From assembly GCA_012840125.1 (NCBI GenBank), contig DULZ01000092.1, positions 38,284-102,283 on the forward strand: 64,000 bases of DNA, read 5' to 3'. The notes beneath the pieces were generated by a model. That model searched no databases and was not told the origin of the DNA. It worked only from the letters and a program-made list of their open reading frames with translations. Positions 3,285 through 39,169 of the stretch are shown one piece after another. Made by a program: the position numbers and the translations under genes. Every line of letters starts with the position of its first letter. The stretch's first letter is position 1. The DNA comes from Clostridia bacterium (GTDB lineage: Bacteria > Bacillota > DULZ01).

Positions 3285-5150
3285 GTGAGAAATGAGGTGA
3301 ACACGCTGATCGGGCAAATAGTAGGTAATCGCTATGAGATTGAAGAGCGGCTCGGCGGCGGCGGGATGGCCGTTGTTTACAAAGCGAAAGACCGTTTGCT
3401 GTCACGGGCTGTCACCGTTAAGATTTTGCGGGACCAGTTTGCCAATGACCGGGAAGTGGTGCGGCGCTTCTTAAAAGAGGCCCAGTCGGTAGCCAAGTTG
3501 TCCCATCCGAATATCGTCAGTATTTACGATGTGGGCCAGGACCAGGGGCTTTATTACCTGGTGATGGAGTACGTGGAAGGATGTACCCTTAAAGATGTCA
3601 TCCAGACAAAAGGCCGGTTGGATCCTTTGGAGGCCATCGAATATGCCCTGCAGATTTGCGATGCCCTTCAACATGCCCACGACAGCAACATCATCCATAG
3701 AGACATCAAGCCGCAGAATATCTTGATTACGAAAAAGGGGCAGGCTAAAGTCACCGATTTCGGTATTGCCAAAGCGGCAACCAACGCTACCATGACTTAT
3801 TCGGGCAGCAGTATCCTCGGGACGGTCCAGTACATCTCGCCGGAACAAGCCAGGGGTGACCTGGTGACCGTTCATACGGATATCTATTCCGCCGGGATCG
3901 TGCTGTATGAAATGCTGACAGGTAGACTGCCTTTTGAAGGGGATACGGCCATCAGCATCGCTATCAAACATATCCAGATGGAATACCCGGCGGCCTCGCA
4001 AATTGTACCGGATCTGCCCGGAGAGTTGGAGGCTGTTTTGGCCAAAGCTCTGGCCAAGAAGCCGGAAGAACGTTTTGCCAGCGCCTTAGACATGAAGCGG
4101 GCACTGGAAGAGGTGCGAGACAAGCTGGGGCAAGGTTTGTCCCAGACTGTGGTGTTACCGAGGGTCACCCGAAAAACCGGCGATGAAGGGGCAAGGGAGC
4201 GGCCCAAGAGCAGGCGGCCAAGGCTGGTCAGCTGGGTGCTCTTCCTGCTGGCCTTGACTTTGTTGGCTGCGGGTTCGGTTTATTTCGGCATCAATCGATA
4301 CCTGGCCGTCAGCGAAGTGGAGGTGCCTGACGTCACCAACATCCCGTTGAGGGAAGCGGAAAGGATCCTTTTTGAGCACGGGTTAAATTGGGAGATCGGC
4401 ATGAGCCGTCATGATGATCAGGTGCCGCCGGATTACGTGCTGGCCCAGAGGCCGGCGGCCGGAGAAAAGATCAAAAAGACGAGAGCGGTAGTCTTAGATG
4501 TGAGCCTAGGTCCTAATATGGGCAGGATTCCCGATGTGATCGGTTTGAGCCAGCGAGAAGCCAGGGTGGAAATCGCTAATGCGGGTTTTAAGGTGGCGCA
4601 GGATGTGGGGGAAAGCTATTCGGACGTAGTTCCGGAGGGGCATGTTTTGGATCAGGAACCCGGGCCCAATGCCGAGGTACCTCTGGGCACCGAAGTAATC
4701 CTGACCATCAGCCTCGGTCCCCAACCTCGCTATATTACCATGCCTGATTTAGTAGGGAAAACCCTGGCGGAGGCCACGGAAATCCTGGAGCAGAATTACT
4801 TGGAATTTGAAGTGCATCAGGAAACGAGTCATGAGTACTTTTCCGGTTACGTGACCGGCCAGGATATACCGCCCGGGGAGCAGGTACTGCAAAGAACAAC
4901 CGTTAATTTAACGGTCAGCCTTGGGCCGGGGCCTGCGGCCAAGACAGCCACCATCCAAGTGTGGGTTCAGGATGACGGGGAACAGCACCGGATCAAGGTG
5001 GTCATCGAGGATCAAACGGGCCTCCGGGAAGCTTATAACGCTGTGCATGACCCGAACGACTTCATCAGCATTGAAGTACCCTATTACGGCCAAGGAAAGG
5101 CACAAGTCTATGAGGATGACGTTTTGATTCAAGAAACGGCATTACAGTAG
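3285..5150 (+). CDS. prkC: Ser/Thr protein kinase with extracellular PASTA repeats (PrkC/PknB-like)
   Basis: Hanks kinase motifs are present (GGGGMAVVYKA, HRDIKPQN, DFG, SPEQ). It also has a central TM segment and three PASTA-like repeats plus a C-terminal domain. GTG start. Confidence 0.9.
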   Translation: MRNEVNTLIGQIVGNRYEIEERLGGGGMAVVYKAKDRLLSRAVTVKILRDQFANDREVVRRFLKEAQSVAKLSHPNIVSIYDVGQDQGLYYLVMEYVEGCTLKDVIQTKGRLDPLEAIEYALQICDALQHAHDSNIIHRDIKPQNILITKKGQAKVTDFGIAKAATNATMTYSGSSILGTVQYISPEQARGDLVTVHTDIYSAGIVLYEMLTGRLPFEGDTAISIAIKHIQMEYPAASQIVPDLPGELEAVLAKALAKKPEERFASALDMKRALEEVRDKLGQGLSQTVVLPRVTRKTGDEGARERPKSRRPRLVSWVLFLLALTLLAAGSVYFGINRYLAVSEVEVPDVTNIPLREAERILFEHGLNWEIGMSRHDDQVPPDYVLAQRPAAGEKIKKTRAVVLDVSLGPNMGRIPDVIGLSQREARVEIANAGFKVAQDVGESYSDVVPEGHVLDQEPGPNAEVPLGTEVILTISLGPQPRYITMPDLVGKTLAEATEILEQNYLEFEVHQETSHEYFSGYVTGQDIPPGEQVLQRTTVNLTVSLGPGPAAKTATIQVWVQDDGEQHRIKVVIEDQTGLREAYNAVHDPNDFISIEVPYYGQGKAQVYEDDVLIQETALQ

Positions 5151-6735: not shown

Positions 6736-6852
6736 ATGGTTCCTTCGGGGATAGGTGGAATTCCTTACCGGCGGTAAAGCCCGCGAGCCGCACGGCGGTT
6801 GATCTGGTGAAATTCCAGAGCCGACAGTGAAAGTCTGGATGGGAGAAGGAGC
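6736..6852 (+). promoter_or_regulatory. FMN riboswitch (RFN element) aptamer
   Basis: Near-identity to the conserved RFN core (GGGG-AGGTG-AATTCC ... ACCGGCGGTA-AAGCCCGCGAGC ... GCCGACAGTGAAAGTCTGGATGGGAGAAGGA). P1 is formed by TCCTTC (6741-6746) and GAAGGA (6845-6850). Confidence 0.85.
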
Positions 6853-6931
6853 GAAAATCACAGTGTCCTGTGCTGTGATTCCGTCTGCTTTTTTCAACCC
6901 CGGAGGTATGCGCCGGGGTTTTGGTTTTGTA
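6853..6931 (+). terminator. riboswitch expression platform: two tandem hairpin + U-tract intrinsic terminators
   Basis: Hairpin ATCACAG/CTGTGAT followed by CTGCTTTTTT, then hairpin CCCCGG-AGGTATGCG-CCGGGG followed by TTTTGGTTTT. They lie between the aptamer and the ribU start. Confidence 0.5.
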
Positions 6932-30459: not shown

Positions 30460-31179
30460 ATGCTGGCTGTACGGTTAAAGCATCTGCAGGAATTGGCTGA
30501 GAAACTATCGGTCAGAATGAATGCTTGGGAACTATTAAACGAAGCGTTGACCCACCGGACTTATACGGCGGAACATCCCGGCCAGAGGTTGAGGGACAAC
30601 CAGCGCCTGGAATTCCTGGGCGATGCCGTATTGGGTATGATCGTGGCGGATTATCTTTTTTCCCGTTTTCCCGATAAAGCAGAAGGAGATTTAACTCGCA
30701 TGCGGGCGGCGGTGGTTTGTGAAGCGGCGCTGGCCCGCTTGGCATTCAAGTTGGATTTGGGGAAGTATCTCCTGTTGGGCAAAGGAGAGGACTTGTCCGG
30801 CGGTCGCTACCGTGCCTCCACCTTAAGTGATGCCGTGGAAGCCATCATCGGAGCCGTGTTTCTTGACCAGGGTTTGGAAAAAACAAAGGAAATGGTACTT
30901 GCCTTTCTAAAAGATGAGATCGAGGAAGTGGCCCAAAGAGGCAGCAGGGATTTCAAAACCGCCTTGCAGGAACTGGTTCATCGCCTGTACGAGGATGTCG
31001 TTACCTATGACGTGATTCAAGAGACGGGGCCTGATCACAATAAACGATATGAAATGGGAGTTATTATCAAGGGAATTCTGGTAGCTACCGGCAAGGGCCG
31101 GAGCAAGAAGGAAGCAGAACAACAGGCGGCGGAAAAGGCGCTTAATAAACTCAAAGCTAAATATAAATTGGAAATATAG
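30460..31179 (+). CDS. rnc: ribonuclease III
   Basis: ERLEFLGDAVL catalytic signature and a C-terminal dsRBD. Confidence 0.9.
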   Translation: MLAVRLKHLQELAEKLSVRMNAWELLNEALTHRTYTAEHPGQRLRDNQRLEFLGDAVLGMIVADYLFSRFPDKAEGDLTRMRAAVVCEAALARLAFKLDLGKYLLLGKGEDLSGGRYRASTLSDAVEAIIGAVFLDQGLEKTKEMVLAFLKDEIEEVAQRGSRDFKTALQELVHRLYEDVVTYDVIQETGPDHNKRYEMGVIIKGILVATGKGRSKKEAEQQAAEKALNKLKAKYKLEI

Positions 31180-31392
31180 GGCGCAACGGTGCCTCAACCG
31201 GTTCATGAACAACACCGGTAACCGGTGTTAATCGTGGGATTCAGGTGACGATCCGGGGATAAGCCGGGTCGCCCCCGGGTGTCTCCCATCGGCACTTGAG
31301 GGTGTTCAGGGATTGGCGTTTTTCCCCGGGCTCCCTCAGTTCAATTCTGCCTTTACGGTTGACACCGCTTGCCCTTTTTTGTTTACGGTCTT

Positions 31393-31416
31393 AGGCGCGG
31401 GTGCGCCTATTTTTTT
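31393..31416 (+). terminator. intrinsic terminator ending the rnc downstream noncoding region
   Basis: AGGCGC-GGGT-GCGCCT followed by ATTTTTTT. Confidence 0.6.
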
Positions 31417-31482
31417 ACAAAGATCCGGCTGTCGTGTTAAAATATTAGAGTGATTGGAAAAAAGCCGCTGGAGGTTAGAGGG

Positions 31483-34400
31483 TTGTTTCTAAAGTCCATC
31501 GAAATTCAAGGTTTTAAATCCTTTGCCGATAAAGTACGTTTGGAATTCGGTCCCGGTATTACCTGTATCGTGGGGCCTAACGGCAGCGGGAAAAGCAACA
31601 TCTGTGACGCGATTCGCTGGGTGTTAGGGGAGCAGAGTTTGAAAGCTTTGCGGGGCAGCAAATGGGAGGACATCATCTTTAGCGGCAGCGAGGGACGGAA
31701 GCCCCTGGGCATGGCCTCGGTCACCCTGGTTTTTGATAACAGCACCGGGCTCCTGCCTTTGGATTTTAGTGAAGTAACGGTCTCCCGCCGGGTTTATCGT
31801 TCCGGCGAGAGTGAGTTTTATATTAACAGAGTTCCTTGCCGCCTCAAAGACATTCACGAATTGTTTCACGACACCGGGTTGGGGAAAGAGGCTTTTGCCA
31901 TCATTGGGCAGGGGCAAGTAGACGCCATTCTCAGTTCCAGGCCGGAAGAGCGCCGGGCTTTGTTCGAGGAAGCGGCCGGTATCGTTCGCTATCGCAACCG
32001 GAAGGCAGAAGCAACCAAGAAGCTGGAACACACCAGTGCCAATCTGGACCGGCTGCAGGACCTGCTGTTTGAGTTGGAGCAAAACTTAATCCCTTTAGAG
32101 GAGGAGGCCTGCAAGGCCCAGCGGTATCAGGCCTTGAGTGAAGAATTGGCGGCTTTGGAGATCAGCTTGTCTTGCCTGGACATGGAACGAATAGCCGGCG
32201 CCCGGCAAAAAGTAGGGGAGGAGAAAGCGGCTCTAGAGCAAGCTCTCTGGCAAAAAGAAACCGATTACAGCCTTTTGGCCGGTCGTTTGGAGGAATTAGC
32301 TCTTGCACAGCAAAAACTCAAAGAACAGGAACAAGCCCGGCAAGGGGATTTGTTTCGCCTGGAGCAGGAACTGCAACACACCCAAGGGCAAATGGTATTG
32401 ACCCAGGACAGGCTCGCGTCCCTAAAGGAGCGACAGGAGTCCATCCGACAAGAAAGACAGCGCAACCTGGCGAAGCTGGAGCAACTGGAGTTGGAGTACC
32501 GGGAGTACAAGAAGCAGCTTGACACTTTGGCCGGTAGTTATGAAGTGCAAAAAGGGCAGCTGGCCGGCCGGGAGGAGCAGCTGGATGCTTGCCAGCAGGA
32601 CCTGGCCCGTTGTCAAACCACTGCCGCTCAATTGAAGAACGATCTCTTTGACATAGAACAACATCTCCTTTCCTGTCAAAACTCCTGTTTGGAAATCCAG
32701 TATGAATTGAAAAACCTTAATCACCAGGAACAAAAACTGGCCCACAGCGAGATAGCTTTTGAACGGCAGCAAAAGGAACTGCAGGAGACTATAGCGGTCA
32801 TCAGCAATAAGATAGCCGCCGGCAAAGAACAATTAGAAGCGCACCGGGAGCGGTACCGGCAAGTTCTCACCGGTCAGGGGGAAACCCAGCGGTATATCGC
32901 GGGCATCCAGGAGCAATTGAAGCAGTTGGACCGGAAAATGCATGCCACCCTCTCCCGCTGCAAAGTGCTGGAAGAAATGAAAGAGAACCTGGAAGGGTAT
33001 CACGGGGGCATTCGCAACCTGCTAAAAGTGGGCATGAAAACCGGGGCTTTCAAGCTGGCCGGCGTGGTGGGGGAACTGCTGGAGGTGCCTCCTGCCTATG
33101 AAAAAGCGATTGAGACTGCCCTCGGCGGCGCCATCCAGTATTTAGTGGCGGAGACAGATGAGGAAGCCCGGAAAGCCATTGATTGGTTAAAACGAGAAAG
33201 AGCAGGCCGGGCGACTTTTTTGCCGTTGAATACTTTGCAGCCCCGGAAGTTTCCCCGGGGTTTTCTCCCCCTGTTAACCGGGGCGGGAGTGATAGGGCTG
33301 GCCTCGGAACTGGTAAAGATCGCACCGGGGCAGGAACCGGTGCTCGAATACTTATTAGGTAACGTGGTGGTGGTCAAGGACCTGAGCGTGGCTTTATCCA
33401 TTGCCAGGAAAAGCGGTTATGCGGTGAAAGTGGTGACCCTGGACGGGGAAGTGGTGTACCCGGGAGGATCCCTTACGGGAGGCAGTTACAAAACCAGGGA
33501 AACCGGTTTGTTGGGCCGCAGCCGGGAAATAGCTGAACAGAAAAAGATATTGGGTGATCTCAAAGCCCAGGAAGAAGAATGGCTGGCAAAACTGCATCAA
33601 GCTGAAACACAGCGGGAACGGCTGCAACATGAGGAGGAAGAATTGAGGGCCAGGCAAAGCCAGCTGGAGTTGGAAATCCTCAATCTGGAAAGGGAGCAGG
33701 AAAGGCTGCGGCAGGACTTGGCGCAAGAAGAGCAGGCATGGCAGCACAGGGCCTGGGAAAGGGAGCAGCTGCAGGCGGCCCAAAGGAGTTTGCTGGAAAA
33801 ACTGGCCGGGCTGGAGCAGGACAGGGAGCAAACGGGGCGGCGCAAGGATGAGTTGCTGCGTCTTCTGGAAGAGACTACTAGGAAAGAGGCCTCTTTGCAG
33901 GAAACCATAAAACAGTTGAGTCAGACAGTAACGGAAGATAAAATCCGGTTGGCTGCTCTAAAAGAACAGTTAAAATCCCTGGAGAATTCCATCAATCACT
34001 ATGAAGGGAATTACCGGGAACTACAGCAAAAGGATCAAGCTTTGGCGGACGAGTTAGGCCAGTTAGAACAAAAGGCAGAGGGGCTCATGGCTTCTTTGGC
34101 AGCTTTGAAGGAACAAGAAATCAAACTGCAGCATGAGTGGCGTGAGTTGGAAAAAAGCCGGCAAAGCCTGACGGTCCACGGGCAGGAAGTCCATCAAGAG
34201 CTCCAAGAACTGCAAAAGGAAACCGGCCGGCTGGCCAGGGAATTAAAAGAATTAAAGGAGCGGCAGCATCAACTGGAGGTGCAGCAAACCAGGCTGGATG
34301 TGGAATGGGATAACGCCGTGCTGAGGCTGAAGGAGAAATTCCAGCTTACCTGGGAGCAGGCCCAGGCCCAGCGGGTGCCGCTGCCGTCACGAGGACAAGC

Positions 34401-35052
34401 GGAAACAAGAATTAAATCCTTGAAAAAAGAGATTGAGGCCCTGGGTTTGGTTAACCCGAACGCTTTGGCGGAGTACCGGCGCATGAAAGACAGGTATGAC
34501 TTCTTGACGCTGCAGCAAAAGGACCTCCTGAAAGCGCGGGATGGACTGTTTCAAGTAATCCAAGAGATGGAAAGAATCATGAGTCTCCGTTTTAAAGAAA
34601 CACTCCGGGCGGTGGAACAAGCTTTTCAGGAGACCTTTGCTTACTTTTTTGGCGGCGGCAAGGCAACCCTGGCGCTGACGGTGCCGGACAATCTTCTGGA
34701 GAGCGGGATCGAGATTGTGGTGCAACCCCCGGGCAAAAAGATGCAAAACCTGTCCTTGCTGTCCGGCGGGGAGAGGGCCCTCACCGCCACGGCTCTTTTG
34801 TTTGCCCTGTTAATGGTCAAGCCCAGTCCCCTGTGCGTGTTGGATGAAATAGATGCCAACCTGGATGAAGCCAATGTGGACCGCTTTGCCGGTTACTTGC
34901 GCAAGTTTATCGATAAAACCCAGTTCATCCTGATCTCCCACCGGCAAGGCACCATGGAGTCCGCCGACGCCCTGTACGGGGTGACCATGGAAAAATCAGG
35001 TGTTTCCAGGCTTGTATCCGTAAAGCTGGCGCCGGCCGGTGAAGTTGGTTGA
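31483..35052 (+). CDS. smc: chromosome partition protein Smc
   Basis: A ~1190-aa protein with an N-terminal Walker A (GPNGSGKSN), long coiled coils, a hinge, and a C-terminal ABC signature (LSGGE) plus Walker B (LDEIDANLD). Likely TTG start 31483 after GGAGG (the ORF-track GTG is at 31450). Confidence 0.9.
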   Translation: MFLKSIEIQGFKSFADKVRLEFGPGITCIVGPNGSGKSNICDAIRWVLGEQSLKALRGSKWEDIIFSGSEGRKPLGMASVTLVFDNSTGLLPLDFSEVTVSRRVYRSGESEFYINRVPCRLKDIHELFHDTGLGKEAFAIIGQGQVDAILSSRPEERRALFEEAAGIVRYRNRKAEATKKLEHTSANLDRLQDLLFELEQNLIPLEEEACKAQRYQALSEELAALEISLSCLDMERIAGARQKVGEEKAALEQALWQKETDYSLLAGRLEELALAQQKLKEQEQARQGDLFRLEQELQHTQGQMVLTQDRLASLKERQESIRQERQRNLAKLEQLELEYREYKKQLDTLAGSYEVQKGQLAGREEQLDACQQDLARCQTTAAQLKNDLFDIEQHLLSCQNSCLEIQYELKNLNHQEQKLAHSEIAFERQQKELQETIAVISNKIAAGKEQLEAHRERYRQVLTGQGETQRYIAGIQEQLKQLDRKMHATLSRCKVLEEMKENLEGYHGGIRNLLKVGMKTGAFKLAGVVGELLEVPPAYEKAIETALGGAIQYLVAETDEEARKAIDWLKRERAGRATFLPLNTLQPRKFPRGFLPLLTGAGVIGLASELVKIAPGQEPVLEYLLGNVVVVKDLSVALSIARKSGYAVKVVTLDGEVVYPGGSLTGGSYKTRETGLLGRSREIAEQKKILGDLKAQEEEWLAKLHQAETQRERLQHEEEELRARQSQLELEILNLEREQERLRQDLAQEEQAWQHRAWEREQLQAAQRSLLEKLAGLEQDREQTGRRKDELLRLLEETTRKEASLQETIKQLSQTVTEDKIRLAALKEQLKSLENSINHYEGNYRELQQKDQALADELGQLEQKAEGLMASLAALKEQEIKLQHEWRELEKSRQSLTVHGQEVHQELQELQKETGRLARELKELKERQHQLEVQQTRLDVEWDNAVLRLKEKFQLTWEQAQAQRVPLPSRGQAETRIKSLKKEIEALGLVNPNALAEYRRMKDRYDFLTLQQKDLLKARDGLFQVIQEMERIMSLRFKETLRAVEQAFQETFAYFFGGGKATLALTVPDNLLESGIEIVVQPPGKKMQNLSLLSGGERALTATALLFALLMVKPSPLCVLDEIDANLDEANVDRFAGYLRKFIDKTQFILISHRQGTMESADALYGVTMEKSGVSRLVSVKLAPAGEVG

Positions 35053-37444: not shown

Positions 37445-37804
37445 TTGCGACAGATGCTTGCGAAAATGACCAGGATCGCTTGGCTGTACAGTTTTTACGG
37501 TTCCCTGTTGACGGAAAGGCAGCGCAGCTTAGTGGAGTTATACTACCACCAGGATTATTCCCTGGCGGAAATAGCTGCTCTGGAAGGGGTAAGCCGGCAG
37601 GCGGTGCATGATTTATTGAAGCGAGCGGAAAGCGCTCTGGAGGAATACGAAGCATCCCTGCACCTTTTCAGCAAGCATCTGCAGCAGCAGGAACTAGTGG
37701 AGCAGATCCGGGCTCTGTTGTCCGCCGGTGATGTAGACCGGACTTTGGTTGAGGAAGTATCCCGCCTGTTAACGAAGCTCCTGGAAGTGTACCAGGAGGC
37801 GTAA
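37445..37804 (+). CDS. ylxM: YlxM/UPF0122 HTH protein (putative SRP-operon DNA-binding protein)
   Basis: A sigma-70 region-4-like HTH (YSLAEIAALEGVSRQAVHD), conserved immediately upstream of ffh. The likely start is ATG 37454. Confidence 0.8.
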   Translation: MRQMLAKMTRIAWLYSFYGSLLTERQRSLVELYYHQDYSLAEIAALEGVSRQAVHDLLKRAESALEEYEASLHLFSKHLQQQELVEQIRALLSAGDVDRTLVEEVSRLLTKLLEVYQEA

Positions 37805-37816
37805 AGGAGAGACAAA

Positions 37817-39169
37817 ATGGGTGCCTTTTCTAGTTTGGCGGAAAAACTGCAAAACACTTTTCAACGGCTGAGAGGAAAAGGTAAGCTGTCTGAAAAGGAT
37901 ATCCAAGAAGCCATGCGGGAGGTTCGCCTCGCCCTGTTGGAAGCAGACGTGAACTACAAGGTAGTAAAAGATTTCGTAGCCACCGTGAAGGAAAGAGCCC
38001 TGGGGCAAGAGGTGATGGCGAGTCTTACCCCGGCCCAGCAAGTGATTAAGATTGTGCATGAGGAGCTTACCGCTTTGATGGGAGGAAGCCAGAGCAAGAT
38101 CGTCCTGGCTCCCAAACCCCCGACGGTGGTAATGCTGGTGGGTTTGCAGGGTTCCGGGAAGACCACCAGTGCCGGTAAACTGGCCAATTATTTCAAAAGG
38201 CAGGGCCGGCGTCCCTTGCTGGTAGCTTGCGACGTGTACCGCCCTGCGGCTATTAAGCAGTTGGAAGTATTGGGTTCCCAGCATGAGATTCCGGTTTTTT
38301 CTTTAGGGGATAAGGTCAGTCCCGTGGAGATTGCCAGGCAGGCCGTAGACCATGCCCAGCCCCACGGCAATGACCTGGTTATCCTGGATACGGCGGGGCG
38401 GCTGCATATTAACGAGGAATTGATGCAGGAACTGCAAGATATCAAGGCAGCCGTGCAGCCCCACGAAGTGCTATTAGTGGTCGATGCCATGACAGGCCAG
38501 GATGCGGTGACGGTAGCCGAGAGCTTCCACCAGTCCGTGGGCATTGACGGCATTATCATAACCAAGTTGGACGGGGATACCCGGGGAGGGGCCGCCTTGT
38601 CCGTCAAAGCCGTTACCGGCAGGCCTATCAAATTTGCCGGCGTGGGAGAAAAGCTGGACGCTTTGGAACCTTTTCACCCTGACCGGATGGCCTCGCGGAT
38701 TCTGGGCATGGGCGATGTGTTGACCCTGATCGAAAAGGCCCAGGCCAGCATCGATCAGGAAAAGGTCAAGGAAATGGAGCGCAAACTGCGCCAGCAGGAA
38801 TTCACTTTGGAGGATTTCTTGGAACAACTGAACCAAGTTAAATCCATGGGACCTTTGGAAGATATTCTGGGCATGCTCCCGGGCATGGGGCAGATGAAAA
38901 AACTGAAAAACGTCCAAGTAGATGAGAAGGAATTAAAGCATGTGGAAGCCATTATCCAGTCCATGACCCCCGAGGAGAGACGGCATCCCGACATCATAAA
39001 CGGCAGCCGCAAGCGGCGCATCGCCATGGGCAGCGGTACCACGGTCCAAGATGTGAACCGGGTGCTGAAACAGTTTACGGAAGTCAGGAAAATGATGAAG
39101 CAGCTAGGGGAGTTTTCCGGCGCTGCCAAGAAAGGCAAGAAGGGGTTTAAGTTTCCCTTATTCAGATAA
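37817..39169 (+). CDS. ffh: signal recognition particle protein Ffh
   Basis: NG domain ([24 protein letters not shown]) plus a Met-rich M domain. Confidence 0.95.

Follow-up and report, generated by a model that had tools for sequence, protein, structure and literature searches.

We analyzed a 64,000-nt stretch of DNA from an uncultured Clostridia bacterium found in biogas reactors (hereafter the window; all coordinates are window positions unless a compared locus is named) and focused on the 303-nt spacer between rnc, the gene for ribonuclease III (RNase III), and smc. A block of ~200 nt in this spacer (31195-31392) has been inserted ahead of the ancestral rnc terminator; no sigma-70-type promoter precedes it, and smc has a conserved promoter of its own. 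Our preferred interpretation, to which we give about an even chance, is that the block is a lineage-restricted palindromic insertion in the rnc terminator region, i.e., a non-autonomous element resembling MITEs (miniature inverted-repeat transposable elements), or a remnant of such an element. For its origin, a palindromic insertion born of an indel is an alternative wording that we keep within the same interpretation. Inside the block, two inverted-repeat arms delimit an element of 157 nt (31217-31373), and the block as a whole lies between two copies of a terminator stem, designated H1 (on the rnc side) and H2 (on the smc side). A preliminary description of this region, made from the sequence alone, had read it as an insulated, structured transcript with its own terminator, either an uncharacterised small RNA (sRNA) or a processed 3' untranslated region (UTR) of rnc.

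The rnc-smc region was compared in all relatives with related Rnc proteins (90, 87, 84, 83, 74, 73, 72, 67 and 63% identity; compared loci are given L numbers). In all ten lineages, the rnc stop codon is followed by a GC-rich hairpin and its T-tract, an extended -10 box, a ribosome-binding site (RBS) and a TTG start of smc, and six of the ten had nothing beyond this skeleton between the two genes. The block occurred in four of the five closest lineages, namely the window's species, L092-L094, L095/L119 and L096/L097. The sister species (L091 and L111-L118), with a 90% identical Rnc, does not have it: in nine contigs from different samples the spacer is 92 nt long, and the stop codon is followed by AGGTGCGGCAGCACCT with seven T residues and then by the promoter. 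The five outgroups (L098, L099-L101, L102-L103, L121-L122 and L123) have spacers of 49-142 nt, likewise free of the block. Such a presence/absence polymorphism at an orthologous site with conserved flanks is a feature of MITEs. The preliminary description had made its case dependent on conservation of the spacer in relatives, and here the answer was divided, as a diverged block is present in three other species but missing from the sister species and five outgroup lineages. A tree built from FabK, FabF and Rnc had the topology (((L096,L092),L095),(window,L091/L111)); together with the distribution of the block, it implies either one gain and one clean loss or two gains.

The two stem copies could be related to the single terminator hairpin of the block-less loci. 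H2 is 12/16 identical to the single terminator of L091, and its place relative to the smc promoter is the same in all relatives, including the six lineages without the block. Judged from these alignments, H2 is the ancestral rnc terminator. The proposal that the structured region is closed by its own terminator did not survive this comparison, because the hairpin and T-tract also occur in the six block-less lineages, before the conserved smc promoter. In a scan of 1.7 kb, H2 was the sole terminator-like site, and it ends 66 nt before smc. The position of H1 relative to the stop codon is that of the single hairpin in the sister species L091, and the terminator scan called no terminator at H1.

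When 1.7 kb was scanned with a sigma-70-type consensus, neither strand showed a promoter before or inside 31180-31392. The + strand of the scanned region had a single promoter-like site, that of smc, which was also the sole site in the spacer. Its extended -10 element, TGTTAMAATAT, was kept in every relative aligned (including L091, L095, L096, L098, L099 and L102), down to 63% Rnc identity. The idea of an insulated transcript, or sRNA gene, was therefore not supported, the only promoter-like site in the spacer being that of smc. The two genes are predicted to form separate transcription units throughout this clade, whether or not the block is present. The preliminary description had contrasted the locus with Bacillus, in which the two genes were said to be adjacent and co-transcribed. 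The contrast is correct in that rnc and smc are 0-40 nt apart in most Bacilli loci compared, but in the present clade a terminator and a promoter split the genes regardless of the block. Separately, rnc and smc were about 1.0-1.7 kb apart in L003-L005, L008, L016-L020 and many other Oscillospiraceae and Negativicutes loci, a gap that presumably corresponds to one extra gene. Adjacency of rnc and smc is therefore not universal in Firmicutes.

All copies of the element have inverted-repeat arms of 18-22 nt with a consensus near GGCAAnCGGTGTTAATCG and its complement. The arms are 79-90% complementary within each copy, so that terminal inverted repeats, which define MITEs, are found in every copy. 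The sequence GGTGTTAATC was invariant in 5/5 left arms, whereas identity at four-fold-degenerate sites between the hosts of the two sub-clades is down to 0.42-0.43, close to saturation; the differences of the window's right arm from GATTAACACC keep pairing as G-U on the + strand. The arms enclose a core of ~90-130 nt, the predicted fold of which varies from copy to copy; core blocks conserved between lineages are GGGGATRAGC..CCYCCGG..CTCCCATC, GTTCAG and GGSCTCCMTC. The pattern ATRAGC-N7-CCYYCGGRYGYNTCCYAT fits every copy and nothing else among the loci compared. The element is also small (MITEs are under about 500 bp) and devoid of coding capacity, as the MITE class requires (its largest open reading frames (ORFs), of 30-46 aa, are not conserved and have no homologues). 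The features of the region are listed in the table.

Features of the rnc-smc region in window coordinates
Feature	Position	Strand	Basis or remark
rnc (RNase III, 239 aa)	30460..31179	+	ORF and translation
H1, first terminator-stem copy (GGCGC-AACG-GTGCC-T), directly after the stop codon, without T-tract	31180..31194	+	10/15 identical to H2
Left insertion flank	31195..31216	+	includes part of 31206-31218 (GAACAACACCGGT)
Left inverted-repeat arm, contains GGTGTTAATC	31217..31238	+	predicted pair probabilities 0.9-1.0 for 31217-31235
Core	31239..31351	+	predicted three-way junction with hairpins 31245-31295 and 31296-31339
Right inverted-repeat arm (TTTACGGTTGACACCGCTTGCC)	31352..31373	+	two differences from arm consensus GATTAACACC
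Right insertion flank	31374..31392	+	weak pairing with left flank
H2, rnc intrinsic terminator AGGCGC-GGGT-GCGCCT (31393-31408) and T7 (31410-31416)	31393..31416	+	terminator scan
smc promoter: TTTACA, 18 nt, TG-n-TAAAAT (extended -10)	31414..31443	+	10/12 matches with TG; overlaps T-tract
smc, with RBS GGAGG (31470-31474) and TTG start (31483)	31470..35052	+	gene calls with SMC_N and SMC_hinge domains

In the predicted structure, the arms form a closing helix (31217-31238 with 31352-31373) of 21 bp with one bulge and three G-U pairs, with pair probabilities of 0.9-1.0; the relatives have 19-36 aligned stem positions. In the minimum free energy (MFE) fold, the two flanks are joined by helices between 31197-31200 and 31386-31389 and between 31206-31212 and 31379-31385. 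The segment GAACAACACCGGT at 31206-31218 matches GATTAACACCGAT at 10/13 positions and forms a local palindrome with the left arm; the repeat pair 31204-31219 and 31221-31236 is 81% complementary. On this resemblance, the segment appears to be the degenerate remnant of a third arm, an additional right arm adjoining the left one. The hairpins quoted in the preliminary description are all present, including CCGGGGATAAGCCGGGTCGCCCCCGGG at 31253-31279, but the first of them (CACCGG-TAA-CCGGTG) sits at 31213-31227 and not at 31216-31230.

The strength of the fold was assessed against shuffled sequences. The region 31180-31420 had an MFE of -107 kcal/mol, as compared with -82.5 +/- 4.9 kcal/mol in 200 dinucleotide shuffles (z = -5.0), and 0/200 shuffles were as good. 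The minus strand scored nearly as well (z = -4.35) because one long palindrome dominates the fold. When the window's 12 gaps of 100 nt or longer between long ORFs were compared, the rnc-smc gap had the lowest z on both strands as well as the highest GC content (0.54, versus 0.50 for the gap holding a flavin mononucleotide (FMN) riboswitch and 0.37-0.47 for the other ten), and it was more structured than the riboswitch gap. The preliminary description was right that the stretch is noncoding and strongly structured and that a good intrinsic terminator, a hairpin followed by T7, closes it. Its characterization of the stretch as GC-rich is true in that no other of the 12 gaps has a higher GC content, but the excess is modest (56%, versus 52.6% for the whole window).

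The claim of a 303-nt spacer without a credible ORF was also confirmed. The biggest ORFs in the spacer have 46, 32 and 30 aa; none of the spacer ORFs has a start or frame kept in relatives, or a match in Pfam or the protein database. The rnc stop and smc start agree with independent gene calls: ten metagenome contigs encode an identical Rnc protein and are identical to the window at all 303 spacer positions, and the TTG start of smc was called independently on these ten. The contigs encoding the identical Rnc protein show the Pfam domains Ribonuclease_3 and dsrm, and the NCBI name of the protein is ribonuclease III, on a Clostridia metagenome-assembled genome (MAG).

The locus differs among block-bearing lineages in ways that go beyond substitutions. 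In L092, the first copy has only 72 nt and no core, and its arms alone make a hairpin of -35.8 kcal/mol; a second copy follows ~50 nt downstream and ends with the contig after about 90 nt. In all, four contigs from two lineages end inside the element: three, from independent assemblies, in the core of the second copy (L092 at 3471, L093 at 1579 and L094 at 1428) and one at the left arm (L119 at 3284). These contig breaks are only suggestive, either of a repeat elsewhere in the genomes or of strain heterogeneity at the locus. Each block is bracketed by two terminator-stem copies, of which the last keeps the T-tract and the place before the smc promoter, and L096 has three stem copies around two blocks. 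A mobile or unstable insertion is favoured by the arms with their invariant sequence, a derivative that lacks the core, two copies in tandem, a clean empty site, another and unrelated insert in L096 (described below), contigs that break within the element and a folding energy without consistent strand preference; we infer a transposon-like origin.

Several further features were observed at the same locus in individual lineages. Between the second and third stem copies, L096 (3454-3617) contains a second, unrelated insert with a 93-nt hairpin, the arms of which are GGAATGTTTGC and GCAAACATTCC. At the start of this insert is a degenerate repeat of the final 29 nt of rnc (24/29 identical; 0/500 shuffles reach the score); it has no other match among the loci compared and belongs to no Rfam family. 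L097, a 1.4-kb contig, matches L096 across the two inserts and departs from it within the smc -10 box (about 1360-1399) into unrelated sequence, which reflects either a rearranged strain or a chimeric contig end. In the outgroup L099 (3206-3334; also in L100 and L101), two terminator-stem copies ~20 nt apart occur without the element. The segment between them shares the 11-mer GCTTGTTGACA with the stretch between the element copies in L092 (about 3346-3380), and this shared segment may be an older insertion footprint or a conserved -35-like box.

We searched for known families and for other copies. The preliminary description had not recognised the region as 6S, SRP, RNase P, tmRNA or a known riboswitch, and in Rfam and ARAGORN scans it was none of these nor a member of any other Rfam 15 family, ribozymes included: at an E-value of up to 10, the window, L095 and L096 spacers gave only chance Rfam matches to eukaryotic or viral families, and ARAGORN found no tRNA or tmRNA in the spacer. 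No repeat of the element elsewhere within the window was detected by blastn, blastn-short or an arm search. Searches of viral contigs for two-arm patterns either stayed without a match or yielded a single chance hit, which lay within an ORF. Comparison of concatenated six-frame peptides with a protein collection revealed no spurious ORF calls on other copies. An origin from the neighbouring genes was considered and ruled out, as the block has no similarity to rnc, fabF or smc. A REP-like terminator motif, GGYRC-N3-5-GYRCC, was also considered and rejected; elsewhere in the 64-kb window it occurs only inside genes and at chance level.

A number of observations weigh against the MITE-like interpretation. 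A profile of three copies, run with nhmmer --max, revealed no second locus in the 64-kb window or among the 123 loci compared, and plasmid and phage collections gave no match (blastn, distant mode). In viral contigs, the pattern ATRAGC-N7-CCYYCGGRYGYNTCCYAT was found in only two stretches, which read as coding and have no other likeness to the element. The known copies occupy one locus in one orientation, a situation that fits vertical inheritance equally well as mobility. The arms are not visibly flanked by a short target-site duplication; the insertion is bracketed instead by the 15-nt stem copies. With one known locus, and neither dispersed copies nor a target duplication found in the sequences compared, the element is only a candidate member of the MITE class. 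The duplicate of the rnc 3' end in L096 implies that some of the hairpin duplication is tandem segmental duplication and not transposition. Between sub-clades, element identity is 59-65%, with one 36-nt block at 30/36, versus 0.42-0.43 at four-fold-degenerate sites, which are near saturation; this suggests that the core, better conserved in these alignments than neutral sites, may be under constraint and possibly functional. Finally, mismatches in the closing stem on the + strand comprise 7 G-U versus 2 A-C, a bias that is not significant (p = 0.18).

A rival explanation is that selection maintains the block as an RNA module in the rnc 3' UTR, where it would act either as a cis element for stability or autoregulation that is cut by RNase III or as the precursor of a 3'-UTR-derived sRNA, the C-rich loops (CUCCC) of which would pair with ribosome-binding sites. 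Its history would then be one gain in the ancestor of the five closest lineages, vertical inheritance and one loss. We regard this explanation, taken as a whole, as possible although doubtful. The same locus and orientation in four lineages with no copy found elsewhere, the excess conservation between sub-clades and the G-U-rich stem mismatches on the + strand all speak for it. So do copy identities that roughly track the host tree and the place of the block between stop codon and terminator, which such RNAs require. Across three lineages, moreover, pairing reaches 92% in the outer stem and 90% in the second core hairpin, with two compensatory pairs each. Against it, the sister species lost or never had the block and has nothing in its stead. 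Between L095 and L096, element identity is at the neutral level (0.65, versus 0.63 at four-fold sites). The stems are kept by invariant sequence, not by covariation. In a consensus structure of three full copies 87.7% of cells are paired, a structure that was itself derived from these sequences. Its double changes (5 pairs, versus 2.9 in shuffles; 49/500 shuffles reach 5) are not significant with three sequences, and for the same three the RNAalifold covariation term was +0.56. The fold of the core differs between copies, one of which is without the whole core, and the locus is structurally unstable. The preference in folding energy between the + and - strands is inconsistent from copy to copy, as expected because the element is a DNA palindrome.

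Other explanations fared worse. We consider it quite improbable that the block exemplifies undescribed small elements that integrate at intrinsic-terminator hairpins and duplicate the hairpin, leaving a hairpin-insert-hairpin(-insert-hairpin) array; the cases cited for this idea are L096, with three hairpins and two unrelated inserts, and L099, with two hairpins 20 nt apart and a possible footprint. Strong structure, a place between genes and a clean terminator after it are what an independent sRNA gene with its own promoter and terminator would show, but such a gene is very unlikely, since there is no promoter-like site for it on either strand, the terminator belongs to rnc in block-less relatives, no Rfam family matches, and the block is absent in the sister species and all outgroups. 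The earlier alternative of an sRNA or a processed rnc 3' UTR is thus retained only in part: the block is part of the rnc 3' UTR, lying between stop codon and terminator, but an uncharacterised sRNA with its own terminator is not supported. Still less probable is a leader or attenuator controlling read-through from rnc to smc, in which H1-H2 pairing would serve as an anti-terminator. The MFE fold does pair H1 with the H2 terminator stem as its outermost helix, dissolving the terminator hairpin, and is favoured over the fold with both local hairpins (-107 versus -100.9 kcal/mol). However, this pairing is predicted in every lineage with two stem copies, whatever lies between them, because both copies are near-identical palindromes, and co-transcriptional folding favours local hairpins. 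The smc promoter is also conserved clade-wide right after the T-tract, and block-less relatives share both terminator and promoter. We take the predicted H1-H2 pairing as a by-product and not as a riboswitch-like anti-terminator. A small protein-coding gene or coding relic, finally, is extremely improbable. One stop-free frame does cross the core in three lineages (43, 62 and 48 codons), but neither a start codon nor an RBS is conserved, the frame is broken by indels outside the core, and third codon positions do not stand out among the substitutions between the window and L095. Nor was there a Pfam match (stop-free frames included), a match among 5.8 billion proteins, or similarity to rnc, fabF or smc that a relic might retain.

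Returning to the palindromic insertion, its closest counterparts in the literature are the Correia elements (CREE), which are MITEs of Neisseria: noncoding sequences of about 100-160 bp with terminal inverted repeats and a conserved core (PMC2649163; PMC2229807; PMC10969869). CREE are intergenic and co-transcribed with neighbour genes, and their hairpin is bound and cleavable by RNase III; they differ in presence or absence between related genomes (PMC2649163; PMC2229807; PMC10969869). The present element is similar in being a small noncoding inverted-repeat element with a core, located beside a gene and patchily present. CREE are dispersed in hundreds of copies and have an IHF site and a TA target duplication; in contrast, the present element is known from one locus, shows no short target duplication and is flanked by two 15-nt terminator-stem copies. 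The two are unrelated in sequence, and the present host is a Clostridia MAG. Other relevant families are REP/BIME and ERIC/IRU of enterobacteria and BOX/RUP/SPRITE of pneumococcus, which are imperfect palindromes of 35-200 bp often found in 3' UTRs or within operons; palindromes of the REP, ERIC and BOX type are transcribed within the neighbour mRNA as stable hairpins that can protect or expose the mRNA 3' end (PMC2229807, PMC3049150). All these families, and likewise bcr1, are defined by many copies per genome, whereas here one locus is known. REP elements stabilise mRNA, and bcr1 is a small palindromic intergenic repeat of the Bacillus cereus group.

Two further systems are relevant to the location in an rnc message. 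In E. coli, rnc is reportedly autoregulated by RNase III, which is said to cut a stem-loop in its own mRNA (work attributed to Bardwell in 1989 and Matsunaga in 1996). The present case is similar in that an rnc message carries a long duplex of the kind its product cuts, and by analogy faster decay and negative feedback would be expected. The E. coli hairpin, however, lies in the 5' leader and is conserved in enterobacteria, whereas the block belongs to the 3' UTR, was inserted recently and does not occur in the sister species. Regulatory 3' UTRs with C-rich anti-Shine-Dalgarno motifs exist, e.g., the icaR 3' UTR of Staphylococcus aureus. Like these and like 3'-UTR-derived sRNAs, the block is placed between stop codon and terminator, and UCCC/CUCCC is conserved in its predicted loops. 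Unlike them, it has a complementarity to the rnc and smc ribosome-binding sites of only about 5 bp (by eye), and it is not clade-wide.

A possible course of events can be proposed as follows. Ancestrally, a single terminator hairpin and its T-tract followed the rnc stop codon and preceded the smc promoter and smc. In the block lineages, ~200 nt have come to lie between two stem copies, of which H1 lost the T-tract and H2 kept it. Transcription of fab-rnc would then pass the T-less H1, cross the block and stop at 31416, thereby lengthening the rnc 3' UTR by about 215 nt. In the RNA, the arms would pair as a duplex of ~21 bp closing a predicted core of two hairpins. A duplex of about two helical turns is a standard RNase III substrate, and the modelled 21-bp helix would provide the near-continuous duplex of at least 20 bp that is looked for in such substrates, so that it is a plausible target of the enzyme. 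The likeliest effect of the block would be in cis, on the rnc message. Cleavage by RNase III would detach the protective terminator hairpin, and rnc mRNA would be less abundant and shorter-lived. Expression of smc would be unaffected because a conserved promoter of its own drives this gene. It is equally possible that the element is neutral cargo.

Other structured or noncoding candidates were noted outside the rnc-smc spacer of the window. A scan of the whole window against Rfam at the gathering threshold returned the FMN riboswitch (RF00050) as the sole match; it is located at 6737-6854 on the + strand (116 bits versus a gathering score of 66.2), upstream of an ORF starting at 6921. An inverted repeat at 37446-37686 (21 nt, 199 nt apart) lies inside a small ORF upstream of a gene at 37817. 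It was rejected as a second structured element, as it is coding sequence and not noncoding DNA; we take the small ORF to encode a YlxM-like protein in front of ffh. In the Peptococcaceae MAG L002 (751-1155), the rnc-smc spacer of 405 nt contains an 87-aa ORF (MVEVLKVSAQSNPKSVAGALTAVLKENG...), the product of which presumably resembles SpoVS. This spacer was ruled out as a comparable structured region, because it is protein-coding and has z = -1.1.

On the interpretation we prefer, what appeared to be a tempting GC-rich, structured and terminated region would be a young and unstable palindromic insertion before an old terminator, not a conserved regulatory RNA. As such, the find is rather ordinary and is best described as a new insertion, palindromic and lineage-restricted, of the MITE or REP-like kind. 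It also gives a reason for caution in screens for GC-rich or structured intergenic regions, since a palindrome inserted upstream of a resident terminator can yield both a high folding z-score and a terminator. The finding would gain significance if many copies revealed a constrained fold. If elements of this type did target terminator hairpins, the element would ride on the 3' end of every host transcript, and here it would have placed an RNase III-type duplex on the mRNA of RNase III. If the duplex is indeed a self-targeting RNase III site, the organism would have acquired a 3'-UTR feedback on rnc by insertion.

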